Positions 4,241 to 55,911 of a DNA stretch of 64,000 nt are shown piece after piece. The translations under genes were made by a program, and so were the position numbers. Below the pieces are notes generated by a model. It searched no databases. It saw only the letters and a list, made by a program, of their open reading frames with translations, and had not been told where the DNA came from. Within the stretch, counting starts at the first letter, position 1, and every line of letters begins with the position of its first letter. This stretch comes from Candidatus Epulonipiscium fishelsonii (lineage in GTDB: Bacteria > Bacillota > Clostridia > Lachnospirales > Cellulosilyticaceae): assembly GCA_001983455.1 (NCBI GenBank), contig LJDB01000010.1, positions 11,399 through 75,398 of the forward strand. Direction: 5' to 3'.

Positions 4241-4258
4241 AATTAACTTTTTTTAAAA

Positions 4259-4292
4259 ATGAATAAGTATGGCGAACTCTATACTTATTCAT
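4259..4292 (+). terminator. Hairpin between ptsG and the antiterminator gene (possible partial terminator)
   Basis: ATGAATAAGTAT (4259-4270) pairs perfectly with ATACTTATTCAT (4281-4292). Only a short T run follows. Confidence 0.4.
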
Positions 4293-4327
4293 TTCAACCT
4301 TAAATTGAGCAAAAGGAGGACGTTTAA

Positions 4328-13624: not shown

Positions 13625-13640
13625 ACTTTAACTTTTATTA

Positions 13641-14547: not shown

Positions 14548-14550
14548 ATT

Positions 14551-14908: not shown

Positions 14909-14973
14909 GTATTAATATATTTTTATAATTTATAAGGGATTTAATATTTAATGAAAGAGAGGTATTGTTATCT

Positions 14974-19377: not shown

Positions 19378-19460
19378 ATATGGATAGGTAACCATTTGAA
19401 ATTATCTCCAGGTTTTCCCCCCATCAGAACCGTACATGAGACTTTCATCTCATACGGCTC
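19378..19460 (-). ncRNA. Group II intron domains V and VI
   Basis: GAGCCGUAUGAGAUGAAAGUCUCAUGUACGGUUC is a 34-nt domain V with the AGC triad and a GAAA tetraloop. AUGGGGGG pairs with CCU(A)UCCAU to give domain VI with a bulged branch-point A. Confidence 0.9.
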
Positions 19461-19481
19461 GCCAACAATAATATTAACTAT

Positions 19482-21856: not shown

Positions 21857-22129
21857 TATTTGCAACATTCTAACCATACCTATTTTATAGACTTCCAGCC
21901 TATCATATGCAACCACGGACTAGATGATTTTTCGTTTATTACTTAATTTACGGCATATTTTAGCTGTCTTCACCGAGCTTCAGACCCTTTCATTCAACTG
22001 TGAATTACTTTCGCCTGTCGGAGTATTAAAGGGAGCATTTCCGAGCGTTACTTCTTCATTCTACTCTCTCGTTCTAACAGTTGTAAACTCTTTTAACGAC
22101 TGAGTTTACAGGTATCTTTTCAATACCTA

Positions 22130-23542
<1,413 letters not shown>

Positions 23543-31797: not shown

Positions 31798-33138
31798 TTA
31801 AGACGGTAATTCTGTTTCGTTCAAAGCCTTCATTACATAGTACATATTTACTAATTCTTCTGCTCTATTTTTCCAAGTATGTTTCTCACTTACCAACTTA
31901 TATGCATTTTCAATTATAGGCTGTGCTAAATCATAATTTTCTGTATAAAATCTCACTTTTTCCACTAGCTCATTTAAATTATTTGCATCATAGTAAATGA
32001 TATTTACACCATCTATAAGCTCATCATTTGCAAAACTGTTCCTATTGCTTATTACCAACGTTCTATTTAACATTGCATTAAATACTCTTTCACTACCTCC
32101 ATTTTTTACAGGATACAAATCTTGCAGTAAAATTTTGCTCTCAGCAATTTTTTCAATTATTTCAGGATACGGTAGTTCTCCATTATCTACAAAATTAGGA
32201 TATTCATTAAAAAACTTATTTTTACTATTTAACCAAAATTCTACTTTTATGTCATTATCCAATAAAGTTTTAACTACTTTCTGCCTATAGTGCATTCTTC
32301 TATGCCAATCTAGAATAATATATACTTGTTCAAATAATATTTGTTTTAAGTTTGGAATGTTCATAGCTGATTGTATATCTTCGTTTTCTAATATGACCTC
32401 TTCTATACATTGTTCCATTGTTTTATTAAAATCATTACATGCTTTATTATGAACTTCTTTAATAAATTTTTTAAATATAGTTATTTCAGATTCCTTAATC
32501 TTCCCTTTTTCTATGAATTTATTTGCTGCATTCTCAGGTAAGTCTGGTCCTGATAAATTAGCAGTCATGATTACATCTATATTTTTTTTGTTATTCATAA
32601 TAATGGATTTACTTCCAGCTTGCATTAAATGCGTTAATATTCTAGTGTTATCAATATATTTTTCATATGAATTCAAAAAACTTTCGGCAAACATTCCTAT
32701 AAATACATTGTTCTTAGGGGTATATTTCAAAAACATTTTAAAGCGAGCTGGATTATCAAGTAATACTGTGCCGACAATGACATTATTATCTGAAAAAAAT
32801 TTAAACAAAGAAGGTACAAGTGCTAAAGTTAAGCAGAAATTGATAACATAATCTACTTTTATTAAACTTTTAGGCACTCCATATTGATCAAAATCTGTTG
32901 TAGTTTGGTCCATATCTTTAAAAACAATGCTTGCTCCATCTGAATTAATAACATAATCCAAGTTTATAGAATCTTTATGAACTGCATATTGATCAAAATC
33001 TAGTATTGTTACTATATGACCCATATTTTTAAAAGTAATTTCTAGCTCATCTATAAACTTGCCTAATATCTGTCTATTATTTTTTGAAGTGTATTTAAAA
33101 AGTAATATGTTTATTTTATCATCTGTTTTTTGTGTCAA
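31798..33138 (-). CDS. CgeB-like / GT1-type glycosyltransferase, paralog 1
   Basis: 446 aa, TTG start behind GGAGGG. The C-terminal ~180 aa (..GGSERVFNAMLNRTLVISNRN..EKHTWKNRAEEL) resemble the CgeB / glycosyltransferase group 1 C-terminal fold. Confidence 0.6.
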   Translation of the reverse strand: MTQKTDDKINILLFKYTSKNNRQILGKFIDELEITFKNMGHIVTILDFDQYAVHKDSINLDYVINSDGASIVFKDMDQTTTDFDQYGVPKSLIKVDYVINFCLTLALVPSLFKFFSDNNVIVGTVLLDNPARFKMFLKYTPKNNVFIGMFAESFLNSYEKYIDNTRILTHLMQAGSKSIIMNNKKNIDVIMTANLSGPDLPENAANKFIEKGKIKESEITIFKKFIKEVHNKACNDFNKTMEQCIEEVILENEDIQSAMNIPNLKQILFEQVYIILDWHRRMHYRQKVVKTLLDNDIKVEFWLNSKNKFFNEYPNFVDNGELPYPEIIEKIAESKILLQDLYPVKNGGSERVFNAMLNRTLVISNRNSFANDELIDGVNIIYYDANNLNELVEKVRFYTENYDLAQPIIENAYKLVSEKHTWKNRAEELVNMYYVMKALNETELPS

Positions 33139-33191
33139 AGAAAATTCCCTCCTAAACTTTCATTCGTTTCATATTGCAAATTCCCAAACTT

Positions 33192-34535
33192 TTAAGATGG
33201 TGATTCTGTTTCGTTTAAATCTTTCATTACGTAGTACATATTTACTAATTCTTCTGCTCTATTTTTCCAAGTATGTTTCTCACTTACCAATTTATATGCA
33301 TTTTCAATGATAGGCTGAGCTAAATCATAATTTTCTGTATAAAATCTCACTTTTTCCACTAGCTCATTTAAATTGTTTGCATCATAGTAAATGATATTCA
33401 CTCCATCTATAAGTTCATCATTTGCAAAACTGTTCCTATTGCTTATTACCAACGTTCTATTTAACATTGCATTAAATACTCTTTCACTACCTCCATTTTT
33501 TACAGGATACAAATCTTGTAGTAAAATTTTGCTCTCAGCAATTTTTTCAATTATTTTAGGATACGGTAGTTTTCCATTATCTACAAAATTAGGATATTCA
33601 TTAAAAAACTTATTTTTACTATTTAACCAAAACTCTACTTTTATGTCATTATCCAATAAACTTTTAACTACTTTCTGCCTATAGTGCATTCTTCTATGCC
33701 AATCTAGAACAATATATACTTGTTCAAATAATATTTGTTGTAAGTCTGGAATATTCATAGCTATTTGTATATCTTTGTTTTCTAATATGACTTCTTCTAT
33801 ACATTCTTCCATAGTTTTATTAAAATCGTCAAATGCTTTATTGTAAACTTCTTCAACAAATTTTTTTAATATATTTGCGGTAGTTTCTCGAAGTTCCCAT
33901 TTTTCTATCAATTTATTTATCTTATCATCGGGTGAGTTGATTTCTCTTAAAGAAGCGGTCATAATTACATCTATATTTTTTTTATTATTCATGATAACGG
34001 ATTTACTTCCTGCTTGCATTAAATGTGTTAATATCCTAGTATTATCAATATATTTTTCATATGAATTTAAAAAACTCTCGGCAAACATTCCTATAAATAC
34101 ATTTTTTATAGGAATGTTTATTAGCAAGTTTTTAACGTGAACGGGTGGATCTATTAATAATGTTCCTACAATGACATTATTATCTGAAAAAAATTTAAAT
34201 AAAGAAGGTATTCCAGCTAACATTGAATTAAAATCAATAACATAATCTACTTTCACTGAATCTTTAGGAAATCCATATTTATCAAAATCTGTTGTAGTTT
34301 GGTCCATATCTTTAAAAACAATGCTTACTCCATCTGAATTAATAACATAATCCAAGTTTATAGAATCTTTATGAAGTGCATATTGATCAAAATCTAGTAT
34401 TGTTACTATATGCCCCATATCTTTAAAAGCAATTTCTAATTCATTTATAAACTGATTTATTATTTGCATACTAGTCATTCTTAAATGGTATCTAAATAAT
34501 ACGATATTTATCTTATTATCTACTTCTTTTGTCAA
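33192..34535 (-). CDS. CgeB-like / GT1-type glycosyltransferase, paralog 2
   Basis: 447 aa, TTG start. The 3' ~650 nt are >90% identical to paralog 1. Confidence 0.6.
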   Translation of the reverse strand: MTKEVDNKINIVLFRYHLRMTSMQIINQFINELEIAFKDMGHIVTILDFDQYALHKDSINLDYVINSDGVSIVFKDMDQTTTDFDKYGFPKDSVKVDYVIDFNSMLAGIPSLFKFFSDNNVIVGTLLIDPPVHVKNLLINIPIKNVFIGMFAESFLNSYEKYIDNTRILTHLMQAGSKSVIMNNKKNIDVIMTASLREINSPDDKINKLIEKWELRETTANILKKFVEEVYNKAFDDFNKTMEECIEEVILENKDIQIAMNIPDLQQILFEQVYIVLDWHRRMHYRQKVVKSLLDNDIKVEFWLNSKNKFFNEYPNFVDNGKLPYPKIIEKIAESKILLQDLYPVKNGGSERVFNAMLNRTLVISNRNSFANDELIDGVNIIYYDANNLNELVEKVRFYTENYDLAQPIIENAYKLVSEKHTWKNRAEELVNMYYVMKDLNETESPS

Positions 34536-34597
34536 AGAAAATCTCCTCCTAAACTTCCACTTGTTTTATATTGTAAAAAAAATTTTCATATAAACTT

Positions 34598-35947
34598 TTA
34601 AGATGGTAATTCTGTTTCATTTAAATCTTTCATTACATAGTACATATTTACTAATTCTTCTGCCCTATTTTTCCAAGTATGTTTCTCACTTGCCAATTTA
34701 TATGCATTTTCAATTATAGGCTGTGCTAAATCATAATTTTCAGTATAAAATCTCACTTTTTCCACTAGCTCATTTAAATTGTTTGCATCATAGTAAATGA
34801 TATTTACGCCATCTATAAGCTCATCATTTGCAAAACTGTTCCTATTGCTTATTACTAATGTTCTATTTAACATTGCATTAAATACTCTTTCACTACCTCC
34901 ATTTTTTACAGGATACAAATCTTGCAGTAAGATTTTACTCTCAGCAATTTTTTCTACTATTTCATGATACCACAATATTCCATTATCTACGAAATTAGGA
35001 TATTCATTAAAATATTTATTTTCACTAGCTAACCAAAATTCTACTTTTATGTCGTTATCCAACAAAGCTTTAACTACATTATACCTGTATTTATTTCTTC
35101 TATACCAATCTACAGTGAGATATAGTTCTTCAAATAATAGATGTTTTAATTCTGGCATAGCCATAGCTAATTGTATATCTTCGTTTTCTAATATGACTTC
35201 TTCTATACATTCTTCCATAGTTTTATTAAAATTATCAAATGCTTTAGTATAAAGTTCGTTAGCAAATTTTTTAACTATATTTGCAGTAGTTTCTCTAAGT
35301 TCCCATTCTTCTATCAATTGGTTTATCCTACCATCAGGTAAGTCTACTTCTTCTAATCTTAAAGCAGCAGTCATAATTACATCTATATTTTTTTCACTAT
35401 TCATGATAACAGATTTACTTCCAGCTTGCATTAAATGTATTAATATTCTAGTGTTATCAATATATTTTTCATATGAATTCAAAAAACTCTCGGCAAACAT
35501 TCCTATAAACACATTTCTTTTAGGGGTATTTTTCAATAGCCTTCTAATATAAACGGGTGGATCAGGTAATAATGTTCCTACAATGACATTATTATCTGAA
35601 AAAAATTTAAATAAAGAAGGTATTCCTGCTAAAGTTGCGCCAAAATTAATAACATAATCTACTTTTACTGAATCTTTAGGAAATCCATATTGATCAAAAT
35701 CTATTGCAGTTTGCCCCATATCTTTAAAAACAATGCTTACTCCGTCTGAATTAGTAGTATAATCTAATCTTATAGAATCTTTATGAAATGCATATTGATC
35801 AAAATCTAGTATTGTTACTATATGCCCCATATCTTTAAAAGCAATTTCTAGCTCATCTATAAACTTACCTAATATTCGTCTATTGCCCCCTCTTAAACTA
35901 TATTTAAATAATACTATATTTATCTTATTATCTGTTTCTTTTATCAA
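34598..35947 (-). CDS. CgeB-like / GT1-type glycosyltransferase, paralog 3
   Basis: 449 aa, TTG start. The last ~125 aa are nearly identical to paralogs 1 and 2. Confidence 0.6.
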   Translation of the reverse strand: MIKETDNKINIVLFKYSLRGGNRRILGKFIDELEIAFKDMGHIVTILDFDQYAFHKDSIRLDYTTNSDGVSIVFKDMGQTAIDFDQYGFPKDSVKVDYVINFGATLAGIPSLFKFFSDNNVIVGTLLPDPPVYIRRLLKNTPKRNVFIGMFAESFLNSYEKYIDNTRILIHLMQAGSKSVIMNSEKNIDVIMTAALRLEEVDLPDGRINQLIEEWELRETTANIVKKFANELYTKAFDNFNKTMEECIEEVILENEDIQLAMAMPELKHLLFEELYLTVDWYRRNKYRYNVVKALLDNDIKVEFWLASENKYFNEYPNFVDNGILWYHEIVEKIAESKILLQDLYPVKNGGSERVFNAMLNRTLVISNRNSFANDELIDGVNIIYYDANNLNELVEKVRFYTENYDLAQPIIENAYKLASEKHTWKNRAEELVNMYYVMKDLNETELPS

Positions 35948-36290
35948 AGAAAATACCCTCCTCTTGGGCTATATTATATGAATTATAATATTTATCATGA
36001 ACATCTTTTTGTAATCTAGATATACGAAGCTGTTCTTTAGTTTCAGCATAAAGTTCATTATAAAGTTCATTGTTTTCTTGATCTACTTCTTTAATTTTAT
36101 TTATAACTTCTCTATATAGTTCTACATCATCATCTATAGAGGAATTTAATTTTTCTAAGTCATTTATCAATCTTCTTTTTCTAATTAACAATTTATTAAG
36201 CTCCTCCATATCCTCATTATGTAGTGCTATAGATTGTCTTTCAGATAACTTCAAAATTCTATTATAAATCTTTAATTTTCCTTGATTCAT
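35928..36290 (-). CDS. Coiled-coil protein, FlgN-like candidate (120 aa)
   Basis: Start moved to ATG 36290 (MNQGKLKIYN) behind GGAGGAG. ATGA overlap with the upstream gene's stop. Helical and charged. Confidence 0.3.
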   Translation of the reverse strand: MNQGKLKIYNRILKLSERQSIALHNEDMEELNKLLIRKRRLINDLEKLNSSIDDDVELYREVINKIKEVDQENNELYNELYAETKEQLRISRLQKDVHDKYYNSYNIAQEEGIFFDKRNR

Positions 36291-37453
36291 AAATCTCCTC
36301 CATCTATTTGTCTGATTATATATTCTGCGACTTCTCGAACACAACCTTCCCCGCCCTTTCTTTTGGTTATAAAGTCAGCTTTTTGTTTTATTATTTCCAG
36401 TGCACTACTAGGTGCACAACCCAATCCAACTTGTTCAATTGCTGGTAAGTCAAATATATCATCACCGATATATGCACATTGGTTTAACGTTATTTTATAT
36501 TTTTCACATAAATTCTTTACGCTTTGCAGTTTATCTCTTTGTCCTAAAACAATATCATCTACTTTTAATTTTTTACCACGTTTTTTTACCATAAAATTAT
36601 TTATGTCATTATTTTCAGCTGTGATGATAGCTATTTTTATTCCCCTGTTTCTTAACAATTCAAACCCCATTCCATCCAAAGTATTAAATTTTTTAAGCTC
36701 CTCTCCTGTGCTAGAATAATACATTCCTCCATCAGTTAAAACTCCATCACAATCCGTTGCTAATAATTTAATATCTAACTTATCTGTATTTGAATGTTGT
36801 TTAAGTAAGTTTTCAACTATTATCCAATCAGATGGTTCATCTATCTCAAAGTAACTCTCTTCAGACATTTCACATATTTGTATATTTCCAGAAATTCTAT
36901 TTTTAGATCTTATTAAGTTTTCTTTAGAAGTTATATAAAAGGCACCATTTTCAACAAAATACCCTTCAAAATCTTGTCGGCGTGGTCTATTATAGACATT
37001 ATAATTTGTTGGTACGGCAAACCCATCTTTTACTTCCCAGTTAAATCTTTTTTGTCTAACTACAGAAACAACACTATCTATTTCTTTTTTGTTAAATATC
37101 TCAAATCCTCTGTCTAAATCTTGAGTTTGTAACAATGGAGAAGTTGCTTGTATAAGTGCTATATTATCAAACTTATATTTGTTAGCAAATTCTAACATAA
37201 CTGATTCAGTGCTTGCTGTATCAGTGCTTGTTTCTTCTGTTCTATCAACAACAATCACTTTATTAAATTTAAAATCTTCTACGGTTTGCTTTATTTGTAT
37301 ATTATCAGTTGCAACATATATTCTTTCTATATATTTGCAATCTTCAGAAGCTTTCAATGTCCAATATACTAGTGGTTTCCCGTTCATTTCTTTGATATTT
37401 TTTAAGTGTATAGACTTACTTCCACCTCTAACAGGAATAAATGCTATATTCAT
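36287..37453 (-). CDS. CMP-nonulosonate (N-acylneuraminate-type) cytidylyltransferase fused to a KdsC/YrbI-family HAD phosphatase
   Basis: N-terminus IAFIPVRGGSKSIHLKNI..GKPLVYWT is the NeuA/CMP-sugar synthetase motif. The C-terminus has DCDGVLTDGGMYY ... GDDIFDLP ... GGEGCVREV, the KdsC-type HAD motifs. Confidence 0.8.
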   Translation of the reverse strand: MNIAFIPVRGGSKSIHLKNIKEMNGKPLVYWTLKASEDCKYIERIYVATDNIQIKQTVEDFKFNKVIVVDRTEETSTDTASTESVMLEFANKYKFDNIALIQATSPLLQTQDLDRGFEIFNKKEIDSVVSVVRQKRFNWEVKDGFAVPTNYNVYNRPRRQDFEGYFVENGAFYITSKENLIRSKNRISGNIQICEMSEESYFEIDEPSDWIIVENLLKQHSNTDKLDIKLLATDCDGVLTDGGMYYSSTGEELKKFNTLDGMGFELLRNRGIKIAIITAENNDINNFMVKKRGKKLKVDDIVLGQRDKLQSVKNLCEKYKITLNQCAYIGDDIFDLPAIEQVGLGCAPSSALEIIKQKADFITKRKGGEGCVREVAEYIIRQIDGGDL

Positions 37454-37468
37454 ATTGTTTATCCTTTT

Positions 37469-38446
37469 CTACATTGTTTTATTATAAAAAGTATCCCATT
37501 CTATTAATGTAGCTAAATCACTATTAATTGGCTCAAATCTTTTGCTACTATTATTAAAGCAATTATAGCACATGGTATTTTCTAAATCTTTATTTAAAAG
37601 TCTTTTCCTAAAATTTACATACCTTTCACTGTTCCAAGCATCACTCAAACTCATTTTATTTAAATCTTCAATAGCCACATAATTATTAAAGTCTCCACAA
37701 CAAGCTGTTAAATAGCCTTCCCATGTAATGTGAATAGTGTTAAAAGGTAATTTACATTCAAATTCTTTTTTTGTATCAGGTTCATCAATTTGTAAATCTT
37801 CCATAACTTCTGTAATTAATCCACTAGCATTTCTAACTTTATAAAACATCATTTCATCAACATATTCTTGCAATAAGTTTTTTAATTTTTCCTCATCATC
37901 AATAGTATATTTAGTCAATATAGTAGAAGTATATAATTTTAGTGGTTTATTATTTTCAATTCTATATTTATGAACTTGTTTTAAATTGTTTATAACTTCA
38001 TCAAAATCATCTTTACCATGAATAAATTTATAAGTACTAGAATTAGCAGCATTAATAGAATATTTTAAACTATCTAATCCTGCTTCAACACACTTTTCAA
38101 TATTTTCTACAGTCGCTAGTTTTCCATTTGTATTTAAATATACATATTCATATCCTATTTCCTTTGCATACGAAATATATAAGCATAAATTTGTATTTAA
38201 AAATGGTTCTCCTGTAGAATAAAATCCTACACATCTAACTCCCAAGCTATAAGCTTCTTGTAAAATGCGTTTTAAAAAATTTTCATCAATAAATCCTTTT
38301 TTTCTACTCATTTTTCTATTTGCACAAAATATGCATGTATGATTGCAAGCATTATTAATTTCTACCAACATATATTTATCTATTTTAGGATGGAGCAAAA
38401 AATCGTCATTTATAAATCTTTCAGCATAACGTTCTGAATATTTCAT
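37469..38446 (-). CDS. Radical SAM protein with C-terminal SPASM/twitch-like Cys cluster
   Basis: CNHTCIFC is a CxxxCxxC motif near the N-terminus. C-terminal cysteines are CKLP..ACCGD..CYNC. Confidence 0.75.
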   Translation of the reverse strand: MKYSERYAERFINDDFLLHPKIDKYMLVEINNACNHTCIFCANRKMSRKKGFIDENFLKRILQEAYSLGVRCVGFYSTGEPFLNTNLCLYISYAKEIGYEYVYLNTNGKLATVENIEKCVEAGLDSLKYSINAANSSTYKFIHGKDDFDEVINNLKQVHKYRIENNKPLKLYTSTILTKYTIDDEEKLKNLLQEYVDEMMFYKVRNASGLITEVMEDLQIDEPDTKKEFECKLPFNTIHITWEGYLTACCGDFNNYVAIEDLNKMSLSDAWNSERYVNFRKRLLNKDLENTMCYNCFNNSSKRFEPINSDLATLIEWDTFYNKTM

Positions 38447-38457
38447 CTTTTATTCTC

Positions 38458-40347
38458 CTACATTTTTTTAGCAATAAAAATCATTGTATCAGAAAAACCT
38501 TTTTCATCAACTTCTTTTTGTATTATATTATTTATTGACAATAATTCATTGTACAACGAATTTTCTTGTTTATCAGTTCTTAACATCTGAGAGGTTAAAA
38601 TATCAAAATATCCTTGACCAAACCCCCATTTACTTAAAATATCAAATTTGTCTTTAAGCAAATTGTCTATTCCATTCTCAGTAAATACTTGTAGATGAAT
38701 TGGAGGTATAATATGTCTATATACATTTTCATTATCTGTTAAATTTACAAATGATGCCATAGAAGGATATCTTGGAACTTCAAAAACAATAACACTATTT
38801 GGTTTTATATGTTTATAAATATAATTTATAAATTCAATAGGATTTTCTATATGTTCTAACACATTAAAAAAAGTTATTATTGTTGCTTCACTAAATATTT
38901 TTTCAATTTCTATATTTTGTACATCTGGATTTATAAACCCTTTAATAATATCAATACCATTGCTTTTTGCAAACTCTATCTCACGCTCATCAGACTCAAT
39001 CCCTATAGGGACAATACTAGTCTCTTTTGATATTATATAAAGTATTTCTCCACTACCACATCCAATATCTATCCACTTATCTATCTTAATATTATTTTCT
39101 TTCATTTCATCCAAAATATATTCTACTTTTGGCTTCGCAATAAATTCAGCTCTTTTATAAAATAATTCTTTGTCAACATAGTGATCTATTGGTGTGGTTG
39201 TATTGTTATACAAACTTTCTGTATTTGGCAAATTAGTTAAATAAATACTTCCACAGTTTCCACATTTATAATATTTATATCCATATATATCCACAAATAT
39301 TTTATTGTGTTCATCATTCAAACAAACTCTACAAAATGTTTGGACATCTTCAAAAGATAAATTATTCTCAGCCGTTTTTTTAGATTTTGAAATCATTGTT
39401 TGTATTTTAGTAATATCTCTACCTATATTACGCATATCCATTGATTTTCCATATTTAGTTTTTATAATTTTTATATTATGTTTTTTATATTTTAATTTAG
39501 CTCTTTGCACTTGTTCAATAGGTAAAATATCTTCACTTTTATAAGTTAAAGCTTTATAGTTAGTATTCAAGTCACGTTTTACTCTACGTAATCCTTCTGG
39601 TTCCAATGAGGCAGCATGGTCTGTACCTTTCCATGTTCTATCTAAAGTATAGTGCCTTTCAATAATATTTGCTCCTAAAACATACGCTGAAATGTCAATA
39701 GATATCCCATGATGATGTCCAGAAAATCCAATATCTTTTACTCTGTCTTTATACAGTCCTCTTATTCTAGTAATTTCTAATAAGCATATATCTTCTGTAG
39801 GAACAGGATATCCAGATGTGCAGGCATATAAAACTATATCTTGATTTCTGTTATTTTTCTCAAAAAACTCAACTAGTTCTTTTTCTTCTTGTTTTGTAGT
39901 CATTCCTAAAGATACATGAATTTCTCCAAAATAGTTTTTACATATCCATTCTAACATTTCATAATTATTGTTACAGGCAGAAGGAATTTTTATAAACTTA
40001 GGATTTAATGAAGCAATTTCTTTTGCTGAAGTCAAATCCCAAACTGAACAACTATATGTTATTCCAAATTTCTCACAATATATTTTAAGCTCCCTATGTT
40101 CTTCTAAGCTGAATTCCAAATATTCTCTATGTTCGCCATAAGTTTTCCCATATGAATTATAATATACGGGATGAGGAGCGTTATATTGCTCTATCGTCAA
40201 TAACTCCTTATTACATCTTTTTTGAAATTTAATTGCGTCTACTTTGCAATATATATAGGCAGTTTCTATAAGCTTTTTTGCAATATCTAACTCTCCTAAA
40301 TGATTGCAACCAACTTCAGCAATTACATAAGGTTTTTTATACTCCAT
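38458..40347 (-). CDS. NeuB-like nonulosonate synthase (TIM barrel only) fused to a zinc-ribbon plus class I SAM methyltransferase
   Basis: N-terminus PYVIAEVGCNHLGELDIAKKLI is the NeuB/PseI/LegI signature. Middle has CRVC...CGNC. C-terminus WIDIGCGSGE is SAM motif I. Confidence 0.75.
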   Translation of the reverse strand: MEYKKPYVIAEVGCNHLGELDIAKKLIETAYIYCKVDAIKFQKRCNKELLTIEQYNAPHPVYYNSYGKTYGEHREYLEFSLEEHRELKIYCEKFGITYSCSVWDLTSAKEIASLNPKFIKIPSACNNNYEMLEWICKNYFGEIHVSLGMTTKQEEKELVEFFEKNNRNQDIVLYACTSGYPVPTEDICLLEITRIRGLYKDRVKDIGFSGHHHGISIDISAYVLGANIIERHYTLDRTWKGTDHAASLEPEGLRRVKRDLNTNYKALTYKSEDILPIEQVQRAKLKYKKHNIKIIKTKYGKSMDMRNIGRDITKIQTMISKSKKTAENNLSFEDVQTFCRVCLNDEHNKIFVDIYGYKYYKCGNCGSIYLTNLPNTESLYNNTTTPIDHYVDKELFYKRAEFIAKPKVEYILDEMKENNIKIDKWIDIGCGSGEILYIISKETSIVPIGIESDEREIEFAKSNGIDIIKGFINPDVQNIEIEKIFSEATIITFFNVLEHIENPIEFINYIYKHIKPNSVIVFEVPRYPSMASFVNLTDNENVYRHIIPPIHLQVFTENGIDNLLKDKFDILSKWGFGQGYFDILTSQMLRTDKQENSLYNELLSINNIIQKEVDEKGFSDTMIFIAKKM

Positions 40348-40690
40348 AACTAGGCTCCTTATTCATGATAACGGATTTAGGAACAACGTGACTAAAGCTG
40401 TCATTGGTAATGCATATTTTACATTGTTTAATTATATCTATTAACTCATATTCTAATAAATCTTCAATTAAAATATAATCTTCGTTTTCAATTGCTTTAG
40501 TCAATTCCGTAAATACCTCTGCAATTTGAGATGAATTTTGAATTGTTAATATTGATGATATCTGTACATATATTTGCAAACTAATTGTAAGTATTTTACT
40601 AACTAAAAAAATTGTAAAACTTTGTTTTGAAAGTATTGATTGAACTAAGTCTTCTAACAAATCTAATTGTTTAATTAAATTATTTTCCAT
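40337..40690 (-). CDS. Hypothetical helical protein (117 aa)
   Basis: ORF between maf and the NeuB-MTase gene with no recognisable motif. Its last ~20 codons are encoded by the dispersed hairpin element. Confidence 0.4.
   Translation of the reverse strand: MENNLIKQLDLLEDLVQSILSKQSFTIFLVSKILTISLQIYVQISSILTIQNSSQIAEVFTELTKAIENEDYILIEDLLEYELIDIIKQCKICITNDSFSHVVPKSVIMNKEPSYGV
40356..40401. repeat. Dispersed hairpin element immediately upstream of the NeuB-MTase start
   Basis: CTCCTTATTCATGATA + ACGGATTTAG / GAACAACGTGA / CTAAAGCTGT. Related copies at 21812-21856 and 54213-54257. Confidence 0.85.
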
Positions 40691-40695
40691 AAATT

Positions 40696-42465
40696 TTAAC
40701 CTTTTCTATATTTAATTTTAAATGACTCTAATATTTTTTCAAGATTATCATGTACAAGAGTATAATCTATTTGAAGTACTTGCACAACTGAAAAATATTC
40801 AACATACATTTCTTCTAAACTATTATTTTCTATTGTTTCAACATTTGTGGGAAATATTTCTCTAGTTACATGAGATTTATTTTGTACTTGAGCTGATGTC
40901 TCTAGTATATTTATTAAAGGATATATAGTATATTGCTGAATTTGATCAAAAAAATCTTCTATTTTACTATAGTTTATTCTTATATCTTCAACATTTCTAT
41001 ATTTTATTGTTGTAGCTATATCGGTCAATAAATCTAATAAAGATTTTATCAAGTCTATTACTTCTTCCAGCTCTAAAATAATATCTTTTAATTCAATTTT
41101 TACATTACTTTTAGATGGTTTTACATGTTCAATTTTTACTTTATGTTTTGGATTGTATTTTTCAATAACACTTTTTAATGACATATGAGAGCATCCTTCA
41201 ATATATGCTCCTCCTTCTGTAGCATTAATAAATTCTATATTTGTATGGGTACTAATAAATTTTTCAATAACATCTTTTATACGAAGGTACATATTATTTG
41301 ATTTAATTTCAAATTTTTCATCAAAAGCTTTAGTCCATATAAAATCATCTGGCATTTTGAAAGTTTGAGTCTCTTGCTCATCTTGAGCTTCTTTATCATG
41401 AAATTCATTGTTTGTAAAAGCTAAATCTTGTCCCATAAGAATAATAGGACTACACTTTAAATAAGTTGCAACACTAATTGCAAGCGAACTTACAGAAATA
41501 GAATATGATAATTCATTTAACTCCACACCTAATGCTTTACACATAGGTCTTAATGTTGTAACAAAATATTTTATATTTTTATGCCTTTCCATTAAATCAT
41601 AATTACTATGATAAGTGCAAATCATAGGATAATCTAAGCAAGCATCTTCTTTTAATAAATCAAAGCTAACGTTGTTTGAGTCAGCATGAAATATAAAATC
41701 GGGTTCAATGTTATTGTTATAAATAGCATTTAAAGTTCTTGAGATGACAAAAATTAAGCCATTAAAATCTTTTAATTGATTAATATTTTTTGAAAGAGAA
41801 GGTCCAGCAGAAACTATTACAGCTGGGATATTTTTATATTGTTTTAAATCATTTAAAGAATATGAATTTGTAATAAAGTTATAATTTGATATTGTGTGTT
41901 CAATCTCTTCCATAGTTCTTATCTCAAAAAATTTATAGGTTAACTCTTCATGTAATCTAACGTTTTCAAAGATAAAATTTACTTGTTTAAAATATTTTTC
42001 ATAAAAATATGAGTAAACCTTATCTGTTATTAAACAGTACTTTCTTAAAGCTATTTGGTGATTATTCCTTGAAAATATAGTTGTTAGCTTATCAAAGTCC
42101 ATACCACTAAAAACTGTTATTTTGTCTGGATCTATTTGTTCAAATTCCATTTGATAATTTAATAGTTCTTCATTAGGTTCAATTATAATTAATTTATTTC
42201 TAAACTCTCCTATATAGTCTAATATTTTTTTTATTCCATAACCTAAACTATAGCCCATTATAATCCATAAGGTGTCTTTGTTAAATTTATTTAATTCCAA
42301 ATTTTTAAATGCTTTTTGCCTAGGTTCATATTTACTTAGGACATATTTTTCAGTATATTCGTTATAAAGTTTCATGGTATAATCTATACCATTTTTAGCT
42401 TTTTCAATTTTCATATGTGTGTTTTGAATTTCTAATTCAATGTCTTTTAATTCTTGTCCATCCAC
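40696..42465 (-). CDS. maf: Motility accessory factor (Maf / DUF115) flagellin nonulosonate glycosyltransferase
   Basis: 589 aa. PAVIVSAGPSLSKNINQLKD is the MptE-like/DUF115 core motif. Typical size and flagellar context. Confidence 0.75.
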   Translation of the reverse strand: MDGQELKDIELEIQNTHMKIEKAKNGIDYTMKLYNEYTEKYVLSKYEPRQKAFKNLELNKFNKDTLWIIMGYSLGYGIKKILDYIGEFRNKLIIIEPNEELLNYQMEFEQIDPDKITVFSGMDFDKLTTIFSRNNHQIALRKYCLITDKVYSYFYEKYFKQVNFIFENVRLHEELTYKFFEIRTMEEIEHTISNYNFITNSYSLNDLKQYKNIPAVIVSAGPSLSKNINQLKDFNGLIFVISRTLNAIYNNNIEPDFIFHADSNNVSFDLLKEDACLDYPMICTYHSNYDLMERHKNIKYFVTTLRPMCKALGVELNELSYSISVSSLAISVATYLKCSPIILMGQDLAFTNNEFHDKEAQDEQETQTFKMPDDFIWTKAFDEKFEIKSNNMYLRIKDVIEKFISTHTNIEFINATEGGAYIEGCSHMSLKSVIEKYNPKHKVKIEHVKPSKSNVKIELKDIILELEEVIDLIKSLLDLLTDIATTIKYRNVEDIRINYSKIEDFFDQIQQYTIYPLINILETSAQVQNKSHVTREIFPTNVETIENNSLEEMYVEYFSVVQVLQIDYTLVHDNLEKILESFKIKYRKG

Positions 42466-42588: not shown

Positions 42589-42774
42589 TCAAATTCTAAT
42601 ATTTATATTGCTTCCTAAATTTGGATTAACAGATGTTTCCATATTTCTCATCATTTCATTCATCATTTCGGATGATTGTTCAACTGTATCCATAGCCATT
42701 TTTGCTACAGATAAACTTACTTGAACTCCTACATTCATTTGGCTCATTCCAGCTGATAAACCTGCAATATCCAT
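42589..42774 (-). CDS. YjfB-family putative motility protein (61 aa)
   Basis: MDIAGLSAGMSQMNVGVQVSLSVAKMAMDT... matches the short YjfB-type motility protein pattern. RBS AAGGGGGA. Confidence 0.65.
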   Translation of the reverse strand: MDIAGLSAGMSQMNVGVQVSLSVAKMAMDTVEQSSEMMNEMMRNMETSVNPNLGSNINIRI

Positions 42775-43038
42775 TAAAATATCCCCCTTTAGTATTTTTA
42801 TATACTAGAAATTTAGCTAATTAATTAGCTCTTAGTTTAATGAATAGTGGAAAATAAAAAAAAGACTTTGAGCTTTTAATAACCTAACTTAATAAGCTCC
42901 TGAGAGTCACATAATTAGTTCTAACAATTTTATAACCTGGTTAAAATCTTTTAATAATTATAACTTATTAAAATGTGAGTAAGTTTTTATAATGTAGGAT
43001 TATAACCAGGTTTTTAAATGAATAATAAAATAAAGAAT

Positions 43039-43470
43039 TTATTTTTTAGTATCAACAAATAATCCTGCTCTTTGTTCCATTGCAGCTATCATTTCTACTA
43101 TTTCTTCTGGAGGAAATTCTCTAATAACTTCTTGAGTTTCCTTGTCGATTACTTTACCTAGAACTTGATTTGTTTCGCTGTGCATAGAAAATTTAATTTG
43201 GCTAGTATGTGAATTAATTTCTATATTTGCACTTTCAATAGAATGAGAGATTTTTTTCACAAAATCTTCTGTTTGGGTTTTAGTTTTAGCTTGATTTTGA
43301 GCTTGAGTTTGAGCTTGGTTTTGATTTTGGTGATTTAGTTGCGGCTTATTTTGTGGTGTAGTTGCAACTTTAATTTCTTTTGGTGCTTGCACTTGTGGTT
43401 GTGGTTGAGCTTGTGGTGCATTATTTATTTCAACTGGTTGTGGTGTATTTGTTGTATTTGTGATATTCAT
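43039..43470 (-). CDS. flaG: Flagellar protein FlaG
   Basis: 143 aa. Q/P-rich N-terminus. C-terminus IKFSMHSETNQVLGKVIDKETQEVIREFPPEEI is the FlaG motif. Confidence 0.8.
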   Translation of the reverse strand: MNITNTTNTPQPVEINNAPQAQPQPQVQAPKEIKVATTPQNKPQLNHQNQNQAQTQAQNQAKTKTQTEDFVKKISHSIESANIEINSHTSQIKFSMHSETNQVLGKVIDKETQEVIREFPPEEIVEMIAAMEQRAGLFVDTKK

Positions 43471-43497
43471 TTTAAATCCCCTCTTTTATTAAAATAA

Positions 43498-43872
43498 TTA
43501 AGTTTGCTGTTGCTTTACTTTCTGCAACACCTGTACCCATAAATCTCTAAACTCTCTTATAAAGTGTAAGGCTTCTTCTAGTTCTGGTTTGCTTTTTTTC
43601 AAGTTAGCTTTTAATAATAATTCAAAGATATAGTCATATAATAAAGCCATGGAATGAGCAACTTCATATTCCATTTTTAAAGTCATATGGAGTTCCTGAA
43701 TAATATTTTGAGCTTTAACTATATTGATATGGCTTTCGGTAATATCTTTATTATCTAAAGCTATTAAAGCTTTATTACAAAATTTAATAGCACCTTCATA
43801 TAATAATAAAGTTATTTCACCTGGTGAAGCTGTTAATATTTTGTTTTGTTGGTACGTTTGATATGGGTTCAT
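43498..43872 (-). CDS. fliS: Flagellin-specific chaperone FliS
   Basis: 124 aa. YQQNKILTASPGEITLLLYEGAIKF is the canonical FliS N-terminus. Confidence 0.9.
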   Translation of the reverse strand: MNPYQTYQQNKILTASPGEITLLLYEGAIKFCNKALIALDNKDITESHINIVKAQNIIQELHMTLKMEYEVAHSMALLYDYIFELLLKANLKKSKPELEEALHFIREFRDLWVQVLQKVKQQQT

Positions 43873-43940
43873 ATTTCATTTCCCTTTCCTAATAAGTAAA
43901 CTGTGTGTAATTTTTGAGAACTTCATAAACAATTTCTTGA

Positions 43941-45485
43941 CTATGCAGTAGCAAATACAGAACTTTGACTATTCCATTCATTCATCATTTGTTCCATAGC
44001 AGTAAATTGACTGTAATAATATTCTTCACGAGACTCATATCTGCTCTGATATCTTTCTATGTCAGTTGCAAGAGTACGGAATTGGTCATCAAATACCTTA
44101 TCGTTATAAAAACTGCCAAAGCTATTTAACGATGTAGTAGCAATTTGGTCACTAATTTTGTCATATAAGGTGTCCATTACTCCATCTGTTTTATTTCCGT
44201 CCGCATCAACTTCACCTGCAAAAGCGGCTATTACTTTATCAGCATCAGAACTTATAGCAGCTTTTAGTTTTTCCTCATCGATATGCAATTTTCCTTTTTC
44301 TTGCCAATTCCCCGTTGTAATACCCATTGAAATTAAATCTTCGTTACTTCCTAAAGCACCTCTTAATGTATCCACAAACTCTTGTAAATGTGGATCATCC
44401 TCAAATAAATGTGTTTCAATTTTTTCATTCCAAAGCTCAATTTCATAATCAGACATTTCGGCCATTTCTTCCTCGGTCAAAGGCATATATTCTTCTTTTG
44501 AATAAGGTACATCAAGTTTGCTATTTAAATCTTCAATAAGTTTATTGTACTCGTCAACAAAACCTACAATTCTATCATATATTGCACCAACGTCTTGTTC
44601 AGACGAAATTAATATCTTGGAATCTCCATCTGTTGCTGTAACACCATTTTTTTCATCATATGCTCCAGTAGTTTGTTTAAAAGTCATATTCAGTCCATTT
44701 ACTGTAACAGTATTTGAAGTTGATTCATAATCATAGCCATTATATTTGTAGTGAGCATTTTTTCCTTGATTAGTACCTACAGTGTAGGTGCCGTCAACGT
44801 CAGATACATTATTTTTGCCAAATAATGCTTCTAAGGCATCTACATTAGCGTTACCCTCTTGACTAGCTGAAATATTTATATCAATGTTTCCAGTTTCTTT
44901 ATTAGAAATCATAAATCTACCTTGATCAAAGTTTACATTTAAACTATCATCGACTTCTTTGATTTTATTAGCAATGTCTTCCATTGTATCAGAGCCCAAA
45001 ATCTCAACTTCTTCATTACCAATATTTATAGTATATGTTGCTGATTCATCCGTTGTATACGCACTAATTTCAGATAATTTTGTATCTTTTGTAGCTAATT
45101 CCTTTGTTTCCTTACCAGTATTAGGATCTACTTTATATATTTGATCGGTATCTACTTGTGTATTTGTTGCAAGTTGCCCGATAATAATTTCATTTGTTCC
45201 ATCAGGAATGTCACTTCCTTCATGAAGGGTTAATGCATCTTCATTTGTGTTTATTATTGTTTCAGAATAAAATCCTCCATCATGTCTTAAGCTACCAATC
45301 TGATCTGTGTAGAAATTCATTAGAGTAGTATTCATTTCTTTCCATTTTTCTTCTTTTAATTCTAACAGCATTTCTTCTTTTTTTAAGTTATCTACTTTAG
45401 ATTTGTCGGTTGCAACCAGTGCTTTAACAATTGACTCGGTGTCTAACCCAGAAGTTAATCCTGTAAATCTTATTGTATCTGACAT
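43941..45485 (-). CDS. fliD: Flagellar filament cap protein FliD
   Basis: 514 aa. N-terminus IRFTGLTSGLDTESIVKALV and a conserved C-terminal coiled-coil. Confidence 0.9.
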   Translation of the reverse strand: MSDTIRFTGLTSGLDTESIVKALVATDKSKVDNLKKEEMLLELKEEKWKEMNTTLMNFYTDQIGSLRHDGGFYSETIINTNEDALTLHEGSDIPDGTNEIIIGQLATNTQVDTDQIYKVDPNTGKETKELATKDTKLSEISAYTTDESATYTINIGNEEVEILGSDTMEDIANKIKEVDDSLNVNFDQGRFMISNKETGNIDINISASQEGNANVDALEALFGKNNVSDVDGTYTVGTNQGKNAHYKYNGYDYESTSNTVTVNGLNMTFKQTTGAYDEKNGVTATDGDSKILISSEQDVGAIYDRIVGFVDEYNKLIEDLNSKLDVPYSKEEYMPLTEEEMAEMSDYEIELWNEKIETHLFEDDPHLQEFVDTLRGALGSNEDLISMGITTGNWQEKGKLHIDEEKLKAAISSDADKVIAAFAGEVDADGNKTDGVMDTLYDKISDQIATTSLNSFGSFYNDKVFDDQFRTLATDIERYQSRYESREEYYYSQFTAMEQMMNEWNSQSSVFATA

Positions 45486-46192: not shown

Positions 46193-46234
46193 TAAAAAAA
46201 ACTAAGGCAGACTAAATGTCTACCTTAGTTTTTT
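46193..46234. terminator. Bidirectional terminator at the 3' end of the PTS-ascorbate operon
   Basis: AACTAAGGCAGAC / GTCTACCTTAGTT stem with A8 upstream and T5 downstream. Overlaps the EIIC stop codon. Confidence 0.6.
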
Positions 46235-47577: not shown

Positions 47578-47631
47578 AAAATCCCCCCCTATGTGTAATC
47601 TGTAAGGGTGAAATCAATCCACCCATTATGA

Positions 47632-47901: not shown

Positions 47902-47904
47902 ACT

Positions 47905-48306: not shown

Positions 48307-48316
48307 CGTATCCTCC

Positions 48317-52893: not shown

Positions 52894-54201
52894 TTATCCT
52901 TGAATTAATTGTAAGATGGTATTTGGCAATTCATTAGCTTTGCTAAGCATAGCAGTTGCACTTTGAGTTAAAACATTTGTACGAGTATATTCCGCCATTT
53001 CTGCAGCCATATCTGTATCTTGAATTTGAGAAAGTGACATTGTCATATTTTCTTCAGAAACACCCAAGTTTTCTACAGTATGTTCAAGACGATTTTGATA
53101 TGCGCCCATAGACGAACGGGTGGAAGAAACTTTATTTATAGCCTTATCAATTGCTCCAATAGCATAATGTATATCATCATCTTCTGTAAGATTTAGTCCC
53201 GCTCGACTCATTTCAATACCAATACCTTCTTCGATATTAGCAGCAACTCCATATCCAGGAGTTCCTGGAGGTGCACTAAGACCTAATTCGTATGAAGACA
53301 TTGAGCCCAATTTTACTTCTAACAATTGGTTTGCATTCGCCCCAATTTGAAGGCCTATGTTTGTTTGTGGTATTCCTCCAGGACTAGAGATCATATAATT
53401 GCCAATGCTGCCTTTTTCCTTGGCTGTAAGTTTAAATTCTCCAGCATCTTCTTTAAATACAAAGTTGTCAAATCCAGGAGAGTCATTATATGATTTTAAA
53501 ACATCTGAAGTACTGCCGAGAGGTTCTTTTTGGCTAATATCGATTGGCTGGGCCATCCCAATGTATGGTCCGTTAGCTGAATTGTAATATTCAAACACAA
53601 CTCCGTCCAAAGTAAATCCTGTACCTGCTGTTGCTGCACTACTGTCTAGTATTTGTACTGTATACTCGGCATATTCATCCAACGTAGCTAGTCTTGGGTC
53701 ACTTGTTAAATCTGCTATTTCCACTCCATTTTCATCTACTGTTCTTGTCAACTTTATTTCAAAAGAAGCTTCTGCCACAGGAGTTCCTCCATTAAGTAAA
53801 GGCATAGTATTAAATTCGGTATTTCCTGATATCACATTTATCTCAGAAATAAGATGATCAATTTCTTTTTGAATTTGCTCACGGTCGCTTGTTCCATATG
53901 TACCATTTGCTGCTTGAATTGAAAGCTCTCTCATACGTTGAAGCATATCGTGCACTTCGTTTAGTGACCCTTCTGCTGTTTGGATCATAGAAATGCCATC
54001 CATTGCATTGTTATTTGCTTGCTTTAGCCCTTGAACCTGTGTTTTCATTTTCTGAGAAATAGCCATACCTGCAACATCATCTGCTGCCTTATTAATTCGT
54101 AAACCAGAAGATAATTTTTCTAGTGAGCTATTTAGTGCACCTGTATTTTGGTGCAAAGCATTTAGACCTTGCAAAGCTGGTATATTATTATTAATTTTCA
54201 T
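52894..54201 (-). CDS. fliC: Flagellin, paralog 1 (435 aa)
   Basis: Conserved D0/D1 termini (LSSGLRINKAADDVAGMAISQKM ... QNRLEHTVENL ... LPNTILQLIQG) with a variable centre. Confidence 0.9.
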   Translation of the reverse strand: MKINNNIPALQGLNALHQNTGALNSSLEKLSSGLRINKAADDVAGMAISQKMKTQVQGLKQANNNAMDGISMIQTAEGSLNEVHDMLQRMRELSIQAANGTYGTSDREQIQKEIDHLISEINVISGNTEFNTMPLLNGGTPVAEASFEIKLTRTVDENGVEIADLTSDPRLATLDEYAEYTVQILDSSAATAGTGFTLDGVVFEYYNSANGPYIGMAQPIDISQKEPLGSTSDVLKSYNDSPGFDNFVFKEDAGEFKLTAKEKGSIGNYMISSPGGIPQTNIGLQIGANANQLLEVKLGSMSSYELGLSAPPGTPGYGVAANIEEGIGIEMSRAGLNLTEDDDIHYAIGAIDKAINKVSSTRSSMGAYQNRLEHTVENLGVSEENMTMSLSQIQDTDMAAEMAEYTRTNVLTQSATAMLSKANELPNTILQLIQG

Positions 54202-54212
54202 ATCAAAATACT

Positions 54213-54257
54213 CCTTATTTGTTATAACAGATTTAGGAACAAGCGGACCTAATCTGT
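54213..54257 (-). promoter_or_regulatory. 5'-UTR hairpin of flagellin 1 (member of the dispersed hairpin family)
   Basis: RNA ACAGAUUAGG-UCCGCUUGUU-CCUAAAUCUGU is followed by UAUAACAAAUAAGGAG and the ATG. ~75% identical to 40356-40401. Confidence 0.6.
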
Positions 54258-54382
54258 CACTCGAAATTTTTATTGATCAAAATATATATCGTATTTTAAT
54301 CATGTACACAATAATATTTTTTGGGAAAATTATTTAGAAAATGAGATAAGTTTAAAACTAGTTTACATATTTTTTAAACATA

Positions 54383-55822: not shown

Positions 55823-55848
55823 GTATTTTCCCCCTTATTATTAATTTA

Positions 55849-55866
55849 CTAGAGACGACTCTCTAG
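55849..55866 (-). promoter_or_regulatory. Short hairpin in the flagellin 3 - flagellin 2 spacer
   Basis: CTAGAGA CGAC TCTCTAG 7-bp stem, located between the flagellin 3 terminator and the flagellin 2 SD. Confidence 0.4.
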
Positions 55867-55870
55867 TAGT

Positions 55871-55896
55871 AGGGGCGAACATATGTATTCGCCCCT
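55871..55896 (-). terminator. Terminator after flagellin 3
   Basis: AGGGGCGAA TACATATG TTCGCCCCT: 9-bp GC-rich stem 15 nt after the stop. Confidence 0.7.
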
Positions 55897-55911
55897 AAGT
55901 TATGTTTGATA

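Follow-up and report, generated by a model that had tools for sequence, protein, structure and literature searches.

Pathways that build ketodeoxynonulosonic acid (Kdn) have been described in Bacteroides thetaiotaomicron and Prymnesium parvum, where the sugar has a polysaccharide or glycolipid context. In B. thetaiotaomicron, where the pathway was reportedly worked out by Wang and colleagues in 2008, the phosphatase is BT1713 and the synthase is BT1714, and the cytidine monophosphate (CMP)-Kdn synthetase is presumably BT1715. The animal enzymes NANS, NANP and CMAS follow the same 9-phosphate logic, starting from N-acetylmannosamine 6-phosphate (ManNAc-6-P). To our knowledge, flagellin glycosylation by Maf has until now been linked to pseudaminic (Pse) and legionaminic (Leg) acids, with N-acetylneuraminic acid (Neu5Ac) and ketodeoxyoctonic acid (Kdo) appearing only as promiscuous or predicted donors. 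In the known Maf islands of Campylobacter, Helicobacter, Aeromonas, Clostridium botulinum and Geobacillus kaustophilus, Maf is encoded beside flagellin, fliD, fliS and flaG, and Pse, Leg or (predicted, in Geobacillus) Neu5Ac is made from nucleotide-hexosamine precursors with NeuB, PseI or LegI synthases that carry a SAF domain. Here we describe an operon in a 64,000-nucleotide stretch of the Candidatus Epulonipiscium fishelsonii genome (contig LJDB01000010.1, positions 11,399 to 75,398; hereafter the window, whose own numbering is used for all coordinates). Our reading, to which we assign a probability of roughly 0.7, is that the product of this operon is CMP-Kdn, probably in a methylated and further modified form, which is made through a 9-phosphate intermediate and serves for the O-glycosylation of flagellin.

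The operon has features of all of these systems. As in the Maf islands, Maf is found with flagellin, fliD, fliS and flaG, and a nonulosonate synthase and a CMP-sugar synthetase are present, but the predicted route starts from a hexose 6-phosphate and uses a Kdn-9-phosphate (Kdn-9-P) synthase without a SAF domain. The same three reactions are predicted as in B. thetaiotaomicron and P. parvum, with the same enzyme families. Here, however, the phosphatase is fused to the cytidylyltransferase, the methyltransferase is fused to the synthase, a gene for a radical S-adenosylmethionine (SAM) enzyme lies between the two fusions, and the whole unit sits with maf in a flagellar operon. The animal pathway also has a CMAS-type cytidylyltransferase with a C-terminal KdsC-like domain, but the substrate predicted for the window enzymes is mannose 6-phosphate (Man-6-P) rather than ManNAc-6-P, and the window synthase lacks the antifreeze-like (AFP/SAF) domain. 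In mouse CMAS the C-terminal domain lacks catalytic activity, whereas its counterpart in the window has intact DxD and GDD motifs. The core enzymes are all members of known families, and the novelty lies in joining them with Maf, in the fusions and in the proposed radical SAM step.

Operon layout and the predicted route to CMP-Kdn

The region 42465..36287 of the minus strand consists of exactly five open reading frames (ORFs), spaced by 5-15 bp or overlapping by 11 bp. An earlier note on this DNA had proposed a five-gene flagellin glycosylation operon at 36287-42465, and both its coordinates and its domains are borne out by ORF, Pfam and NCBIfam analysis; profile searches run for each domain found every one that was expected, with the 117-aa protein lacking any Pfam or NCBIfam match. 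The first ORF (42465..40696) encodes a Maf protein of 589 aa (PF01973 MptE-like, 124.6 bits, aa 190-352; NCBIfam FlagModPseD domain model, 74.7 bits). It is followed by the 117-aa protein (40690..40337), which we describe as DUF8042-like through an orthologue in another Epulopiscium contig (L001) that is 64% identical and carries PF26154 DUF8042. The third ORF (40347..38458) is a NeuB-methyltransferase fusion of 629 aa (NeuB PF03102, aa 27-269, 215 bits; PF13489, aa 417-565), the fourth (38446..37469) a radical SAM/SPASM protein of 325 aa (PF04055, 78 bits; PF13186, 48 bits), and the fifth (37453..36287) a cytidylyltransferase-phosphatase fusion of 388 aa (CTP_transf_3, aa 3-209; KdsC/YrbI-type HAD domain, aa 228-381). 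The same gene order, including both fusions, recurs with identities of 83-93% in L001 and L090, which are also Epulopiscium contigs, and we therefore consider the fusion genes to be real rather than assembly artefacts. The NeuB-methyltransferase fusion is also 86% identical to a protein of another Ca. Epulonipiscium fishelsonii assembly, and the radical SAM protein matches NCBI AN639_09615 of this species with 100% identity. Promoter prediction was uninformative in the AT-rich window (119 promoter-like sites against 112 expected), and a terminator scan of the window found none on the minus strand.

The N-terminal domain of the NeuB-methyltransferase fusion (aa 1-290, 39478..40347, minus strand) is a predicted Kdn-9-P synthase by homology to the P. 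parvum enzyme. Between aa 3 and 287 it is identical to P. parvum Kdn-9-P synthetase at 167 of 287 positions (58%; 347 bits, E 3e-125), over the full length of the domain; as the reference we used a translation of the expression construct given in the supplementary material of PMC6200933. The P. parvum enzyme converts Man-6-P and rejects ManNAc-6-P, arabinose 5-phosphate and unphosphorylated sugars (Wagstaff et al. 2018, PMC6200933). The window domain is 38% identical to human NANS, a Neu5Ac-9-P synthase (its sequence was confirmed by exact look-up; human and mouse NANS served as the animal references), and the nearest characterised synthases, from P. parvum and human, are therefore all 9-phosphate-forming enzymes. 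The solved NeuB, PseI and SpsE structures were matched at only 63-78 bits, and the domain scores below the NCBIfam cutoffs for NeuB_NnaB (TIGR03569, 181 against 400) and PseI (TIGR03586, 130 against 340). No match to the SAF/antifreeze-like domain (PF08666) was found in the fusion with Pfam; as the P. parvum enzyme is 312 aa long and ends at the same point as the window domain, the missing SAF domain can be regarded as a family trait.

The subfamily to which this synthase belongs is sharply conserved; its members keep 55-69% identity between phyla, and dinoflagellate sequences fall in the same range. In alignments, the window synthase keeps the motifs that are invariant in it: GCNH, KFQKR, YG.TYG.HRE.LEF, GFSGHH, ERH and RTWKGTDHAASLEP. 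Members of the subfamily are fused to HAD phosphatases, to mannose-6-phosphate isomerase (in dozens of cases), to CTP_transf_3, to HAD plus CTP_transf_3 or, in one case, to Maf. The fusion with HAD and CTP_transf_3 (as in P0029) joins all three steps of the pathway in a single protein of 695 aa, and in P0024 Maf and the synthase form one polypeptide of 933 aa. We predict that the window synthase prefers Man-6-P, for which the mannose-6-phosphate isomerase fusions give indirect support. A sequence labelled as coming from the fish Seriola lalandi (P0112) was first taken as a vertebrate NANS and then rejected, as it resembles dinoflagellate and haptophyte enzymes. Its conserved blocks are nearly identical to those of dinoflagellate and haptophyte Kdn-9-P synthases and its C-terminus is nonsense-like, so that it probably represents a contaminant or a misassembly in the fish genome rather than a fish NANS.

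The N-terminal domain of the 388-aa protein (aa 1-220, 36794..37453, minus strand) is a putative CMP-Kdn synthetase. It matches PF02348 (82 bits), contains the CTP-binding loop RGGSKSIHLKN and scores below the cutoff of the NCBIfam model for PseF (97 bits against 206). Among solved structures its best relative is PpNeuA (9t4z, 163 bits), followed by mouse CMAS (127 bits) and the Neisseria meningitidis enzyme (65 bits). Arg196 of PpNeuA confers specificity for Kdn, and the R196L change switches the enzyme to Neu5Ac (Morley et al. 2026, PMC12934254). Using Gln110 and Thr89 as landmarks to map this position, we found that Arg186 of the window protein (SKNRISG, codon 36898..36896) aligns with Arg196 (HKCRLGE), where mouse CMAS has Leu.

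The C-terminal HAD domain (aa 225-388, 36287..36781, minus strand) has as its best solved relative BT1713 (3e81, 122.8 bits), the Kdn-9-P phosphatase of Bacteroides. Its DxD (DCD, aa 234-236) and GDD (aa 330) motifs are intact, and it exceeds the cutoff of TIGR01670 (149 bits against 107). Its top-scoring model is NF058599 (162 bits), ahead of the KdsC model PRK09484 (147 bits against a cutoff of 208). Glu280 (codon 36616..36614) aligns with Glu56 of BT1713 (LTGEKTE), where Moraxella KdsC has Arg (ITGRS). Glu56 is said to serve as a lineage marker, reportedly from work by Daughtry and co-workers in 2013, and the PDB entry 4hgq is an Ala variant at this site.

Given the close homology to characterised enzymes and the specificity residues, we propose that the pathway would begin with three reactions. 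The N-terminal domain of the 629-aa protein would condense Man-6-P and phosphoenolpyruvate (PEP) to Kdn-9-P, the HAD domain of the 388-aa protein would strip the 9-phosphate, and the N-terminal domain of the same protein would join Kdn and cytidine triphosphate to give CMP-Kdn. A 9-phosphate route of a Kdn-like or Neu-like kind had been suggested from the sequence before; our results support it and narrow it to Kdn through the 58% identity of the synthase, Arg186 and Glu280. The suggested lack of PseB/PseC/LegB/LegC/NeuC-type genes also holds in the part of the window that was scanned with Pfam, which covered about 40 of the roughly 50 large ORFs (the other nine or so being eight ORFs of less than 250 aa and the 727-aa C-terminal part of rpoC). 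No PseB/LegB-type dehydratase, DegT-type sugar aminotransferase or NeuC-type (Epimerase_2) epimerase was found among the scanned ORFs, nor was an N-acetyltransferase, a hydrolase/2-epimerase or a PseI/LegI synthase of the Pse or Leg pathways, and the sole aminotransferase (13018..11840) is of the class I/II amino-acid type.

Flagellar setting and spread of the predicted Kdn module

The Maf gene is immediately preceded by fliD, fliS and flaG, which together with a 61-aa YjfB-like ORF occupy 42589..45485 on the minus strand (Pfam FliD_N/C, FliS and FlaG), and this upstream order is identical in L001. At the other end lies a gene for a small FliT/FlgN-like protein (35928..36344, minus strand), a possible flagellar export chaperone, which has sub-threshold Pfam matches to FlgN (25 bits) and FliT (22 bits) and whose L001 orthologue is annotated as PF05400 FliT. 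The module therefore sits within a flagellar locus, between fliD-fliS-flaG and the FliT-like gene. Three flagellin genes, whose products are the presumed acceptors, are found 10-15 kb upstream (52894..57279, minus strand; 435, 479 and 455 aa, each with Flagellin_N and Flagellin_C domains). The three flagellins share 50-72% pairwise identity, and Ser and Thr make up about 15-16% of their residues. In this setting Maf is a putative transferase of the nonulosonate from its CMP donor onto Ser/Thr of flagellin. Transfer by the Maf enzymes of C. botulinum and Geobacillus has been studied by co-expression or mass spectrometry, and a preprint on Maf donor promiscuity covers Neu5Ac and Kdo and does not mention Kdn. 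We found no paper linking Kdn with flagellin, and none on flagellin glycosylation in Epulopiscium, in the literature searched.

To gain insight into the distribution of these genes, we scanned one genome per species and found at least 584 species with this type of synthase; neighbourhoods were then taken from the best 80 loci, none of which is from Epulopiscium. Among these 80 loci, a cytidylyltransferase adjoins the synthase in 69 and a HAD domain in 65, mostly as the same fusion that is seen in the window. Glu is present at the position of BT1713 Glu56 in all 65 HAD domains (65/65), and 63 of the cytidylyltransferases carry Arg at the position of PpNeuA Arg196. From this adjacency and the retention of both residues, we conclude that the synthase and the cytidylyltransferase-phosphatase pair form a widespread and coherent predicted Kdn module. 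The three glycosyltransferases that follow the window operon lie outside this conserved core in other genomes.

In most of the 80 loci, for example in Flavobacteriia and many Clostridia, neither Maf nor flagellin is encoded near the module. Maf occurs near the synthase in seven loci (L021, L043, L046, L047, L055, L080 and L082, the last from Roseburia), five of which also contain flagellin (L043, L046, L047, L055 and L082), and in a Butyrivibrio locus (L039) flagellin is present and Maf was not detected. In several Clostridia other than Epulopiscium, Maf homologues are encoded directly upstream of Kdn-type synthases. The Clostridium malenominatum JCM 1405 locus (L047) begins with flaG, fliS, fliD, flagellin, maf and a small ORF, and continues with a Kdn synthase, a cytidylyltransferase-phosphatase and two methyltransferases. 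On the metagenome contig L008 the order is flagellin, DUF8042, a Maf::synthase fusion and mannose-6-phosphate isomerase, so that the DUF8042 gene stands directly upstream of the Maf::NeuB fusion. As suggested by this conserved gene context and by the gene fusion, Maf together with its DUF8042 partner would transfer the finished sugar to Ser/Thr of the three flagellins before their export.

The L008 contig also carries genes for a glycerophosphotransferase (TagF-like) and a TagD-like cytidylyltransferase (12814-15284), which accompany Maf::synthase, and the same two gene types occur in a phosphonate locus (L006), a hint that the flagellar glycans of some Clostridia may be decorated with glycerol phosphate or phosphonate.

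Tailoring enzymes and alternative explanations

The C-terminal part of the 629-aa protein (38458..39345, minus strand) is a zinc-ribbon, class I SAM-dependent methyltransferase domain (PF13489, 51.9 bits), with the zinc ribbon (CRVC...CGNC, CxxC...CxxC, aa 339-365) preceding the catalytic part. Free-standing homologues (P0240-P0299; loci L170-L173) are zinc-ribbon class I proteins of about 335 aa that are 40-52% identical to the fused domain, and we know of no characterised member of this family. In 3/3 sampled contigs, homologues with 49-51% identity adjoin CTP_transf_3/NeuB genes. One of these contexts is Kdn-type (Aminipila, with a cytidylyltransferase, a HAD domain and mannose-6-phosphate isomerase), and two are Neu5Ac-type (NeuA, SAF-NeuB and NeuC), including one in a Methanobrevibacter metagenome-assembled genome. 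A more distant methyltransferase (27% identity) follows the Kdn genes of C. malenominatum. SAM-dependent O-methylation of such sugars has precedents in the 5-O-methyl-Kdn of a Sinorhizobium fredii polysaccharide and the 8-O-methyl sialic acids of echinoderms. The family described here consistently adjoins Kdn- or Neu5Ac-type genes. We regard its members as candidate sialic acid/Kdn O-methyltransferases, and the gene context adds support to the idea that the fused domain may tailor the sugar. As the homologues adjoin both gene types, the likeliest target would be a hydroxyl common to Kdn and Neu5Ac (O4, O7, O8 or O9). The combination of zinc ribbon and methyltransferase also resembles TcaB9-type sugar C-methyltransferases, and we considered such an enzyme acting after a ketone made by the radical SAM enzyme. 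This was dropped because the window protein lacks the C-terminal domain of the TcaB9 family and because no other locus brings the radical SAM and methyltransferase families together.

The radical SAM protein has one C-terminal auxiliary Fe-S ("twitch"/SPASM) domain in addition to the CxxxCxxC core (C34, C38 and C41), and C231, C249/C250, C293 and C296 are conserved across 24 homologues. Its best match among solved structures is BtrN (PDB 4m7t, 72.8 bits), which extends over the core and the C-terminal auxiliary domain. BtrN is the radical SAM 2-deoxy-scyllo-inosamine dehydrogenase of butirosin biosynthesis and acts on a polyhydroxylated small molecule. The two proteins share the CxxxCxxC core and the single C-terminal auxiliary-cluster domain, but their sequence similarity is low and their contexts differ, BtrN belonging to an aminoglycoside pathway and the window family to nonulosonate or phosphonate loci. 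In butirosin synthesis the ketone is then transaminated, whereas the window operon contains no aminotransferase.

We scanned 80 metagenome loci for the context of this radical SAM family (one of them, L090, is the close orthologue of the window mentioned above). PEP mutase and/or phosphonopyruvate decarboxylase genes were found in 38/80, nonulosonate genes in 27/80 and both in 3/80. One nonulosonate locus (L092) reads flagellin-maf-rSAM-LegB-LegC, where rSAM denotes the radical SAM gene, and in a Kdn-type locus (L120) the radical SAM enzyme is fused to NUDIX. Phosphonate loci often encode it as a fusion with a PF01467 cytidylyltransferase-like domain, together with a gene resembling adenosine phosphosulfate kinase, and outside these loci CTP_transf_3 is its commonest neighbour. 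These fusions and neighbours suggest a nucleotide-linked (cytidylyl) substrate. A search for literature linking radical SAM enzymes to nonulosonate biosynthesis returned nothing, and the literature searched on the Leg and phosphonate contexts of the family contains passing mentions only, with no function described.

By analogy with its distant homologue BtrN, the enzyme may oxidise a secondary alcohol of a sugar-like substrate, and it is a putative modifier of Kdn or CMP-Kdn. It would remove a hydrogen atom from the sugar, which would probably be cytidylyl-activated at that stage, giving a keto, epimeric or deoxy derivative. A bolder version of this proposal is that the flagella of this giant bacterium carry an undescribed nonulosonate, Kdn that is both methylated and remodelled by the radical SAM enzyme (keto, epimeric, deoxy or branched), and that the radical SAM family is a new class of cytidylyl-tailoring enzymes. 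Such a class would explain why the family occurs in Kdn/Leg-type nonulosonate loci as well as in phosphonate loci, and we offer this version tentatively, as one that may well prove wrong.

Several observations weigh against our reading of the operon. Where human NANS carries Met42, the window synthase shares a Thr with mouse NANS, and M42T is reportedly the change that removes Kdn-9-P synthase activity from human NANS. We give this residue little weight because other members of the bacterial Kdn-type subfamily likewise have Thr there. The top equivalog of the phosphatase, NF058599 (Kdn-9-P phosphatase), is matched at 162 bits, below its cutoff of 180. The three downstream glycosyltransferases have no solved relative even at E = 1 and no characterised relatives, and Ca. 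Epulonipiscium fishelsonii is uncultured. Lastly, the radical SAM gene is absent from 80/80 of the sampled Kdn-type genome loci, which makes it an accessory gene rather than one for a core Kdn enzyme, and its substrate could be something other than a sugar.

That last point leads to the alternative that survives best, namely that the radical SAM enzyme acts not on the sugar at all, and instead on a protein or on a separate small molecule, linked to a cytidine nucleotide, that is added to the glycan. The family is found more often in phosphonate than in nonulosonate loci (38 against 27 of the 80), the gene is missing from every sampled Kdn-type genome locus, and many SPASM-domain enzymes are peptide maturases according to NCBIfam. 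We nevertheless consider this alternative rather unlikely, since the closest solved relative, BtrN, is a small-molecule carbinol dehydrogenase with a matching single auxiliary-cluster domain, the NUDIX and cytidylyltransferase-like fusions point to small nucleotide-linked substrates, and genes for a precursor peptide or for phosphonate synthesis are lacking in the window operon.

The production of CMP-Neu5Ac, or of another 5-amino sialic acid, from ManNAc-6-P by the animal NANS/NANP/CMAS route appears improbable to us. It would fit the 38% identity of the synthase to human Neu5Ac-9-P synthase, the Thr shared with mouse NANS (which is without Kdn-9-P activity) at the position of Met in human NANS, and the CMAS-like combination of a cytidylyltransferase with a KdsC-like domain (1qwj and 3ewi were both matched). 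The synthase is, however, far closer, at 58%, to an enzyme that rejects ManNAc-6-P, and many of its relatives are fused to mannose-6-phosphate isomerase. In addition, the Arg of the cytidylyltransferase would sterically exclude the 5-N-acetyl group, and no NeuC, NanE, NanK or GNE-type gene was found among the scanned window ORFs.

Kdn could also be made for a capsule, a wall polymer or another glycoconjugate, with the proximity of maf being incidental. Most Kdn-type modules lie away from Maf and flagellin genes and presumably serve polysaccharides, and three glycosyltransferases follow the operon. We judge this destination to be very improbable all the same, because the genes are tightly grouped with maf, with flaG on one side and the FliT-like gene on the other, this arrangement is kept in three Epulopiscium contigs, and several other Clostridia have Maf, Kdn synthase and flagellin side by side; in P0024 Maf and synthase even form one polypeptide. 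Moreover, flippase, polymerase and export genes are missing from the window.

Finally, the idea that a full set of pse or leg precursor genes in another part of the genome feeds this synthase, making the flagellin sugar a Pse/Leg derivative, has in its favour that characterised Maf enzymes natively use Pse or Leg donors, yet it is hardly credible given the synthase's sub-cutoff PseI and NeuB_NnaB scores, its closest characterised relatives, which all use 6-phosphosugars, and the fact that Pse and Leg are 9-deoxy sugars with 6-deoxy precursors, which cannot carry the phosphate implied by the fused, intact phosphatase, so that a 9-phosphate route cannot yield either sugar and the presence of pse/leg genes elsewhere would be largely moot as a refutation.

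Neighbouring genes and implications

The three glycosyltransferases that had been noted downstream of the operon are real. They are encoded in tandem (31798..35947, minus strand; 449, 447 and 446 aa), are paralogues with 77-82% identity, and each has a C-terminal Glyco_trans_1_2 domain (PF13524, 54-55 bits each). Identity among all three rises to 96-100% over the last ~100 aa, and the region around aa 200-250 is the most divergent. This pattern suggests recent duplication or gene conversion, with acceptor/donor regions that may be diversifying. The proteins may extend the nonulosonate once it has been placed on flagellin. There are as many glycosyltransferase genes as flagellin genes, which may be a coincidence.

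Downstream of the glycosyltransferases are nusG and ribosomal protein genes, and a ribosomal protein L10 leader (RF00557, 28832-28970, minus strand, 69 bits) is located upstream of rplJ, as expected. Further along, at 17189-23506 on the minus strand, rpoC is interrupted by a group II intron. The intron is marked by RF02004 (D1-D4, 22085..21884, 139.6 bits) and RF00029 (domain V/VI, 19462..19378, 69 bits), with a reverse-transcriptase ORF (21333..20329) between the two, and the gene is divided into an N-terminal ORF (23506..22127) and a C-terminal ORF (19372..17189). An intron within an essential RNA polymerase gene is unusual. Between fliD and the flagellins, at 46225-52072 on the minus strand, lies a phosphotransferase system (PTS) set (EIIC-GAT, IIB, IIA and a PRD/HTH regulator) together with a GH26-like protein. 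Elsewhere the window encodes a GH38 alpha-mannosidase-like protein (9880..7211) and, together with a BglG antiterminator, a glucose-type PTS EIICBA (2162..5152). These PTS and glycosidase genes may be connected with the supply of mannose for Kdn.

If our reading of the operon as a Kdn pathway for flagellin is true, Kdn would be the third major nonulosonate class to be added to native flagellar glycans. The flagellar sugar would then be drawn straight from central metabolism (Man-6-P and PEP) with only three catalytic domains. The predicted Kdn route recurs in several gut and rumen Clostridia, among them Roseburia, Butyrivibrio, other Lachnospiraceae and C. malenominatum. Cultured carriers of the cassette offer a test system, and a cassette this compact could be used to put Kdn on proteins. 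The operon also provides a testable context for two uncharacterised families, the sialic-acid-linked methyltransferases and the BtrN-like radical SAM enzymes. Flagella that carry Kdn could affect how host immunity and flagellotropic phages see the flagella of commensal bacteria.

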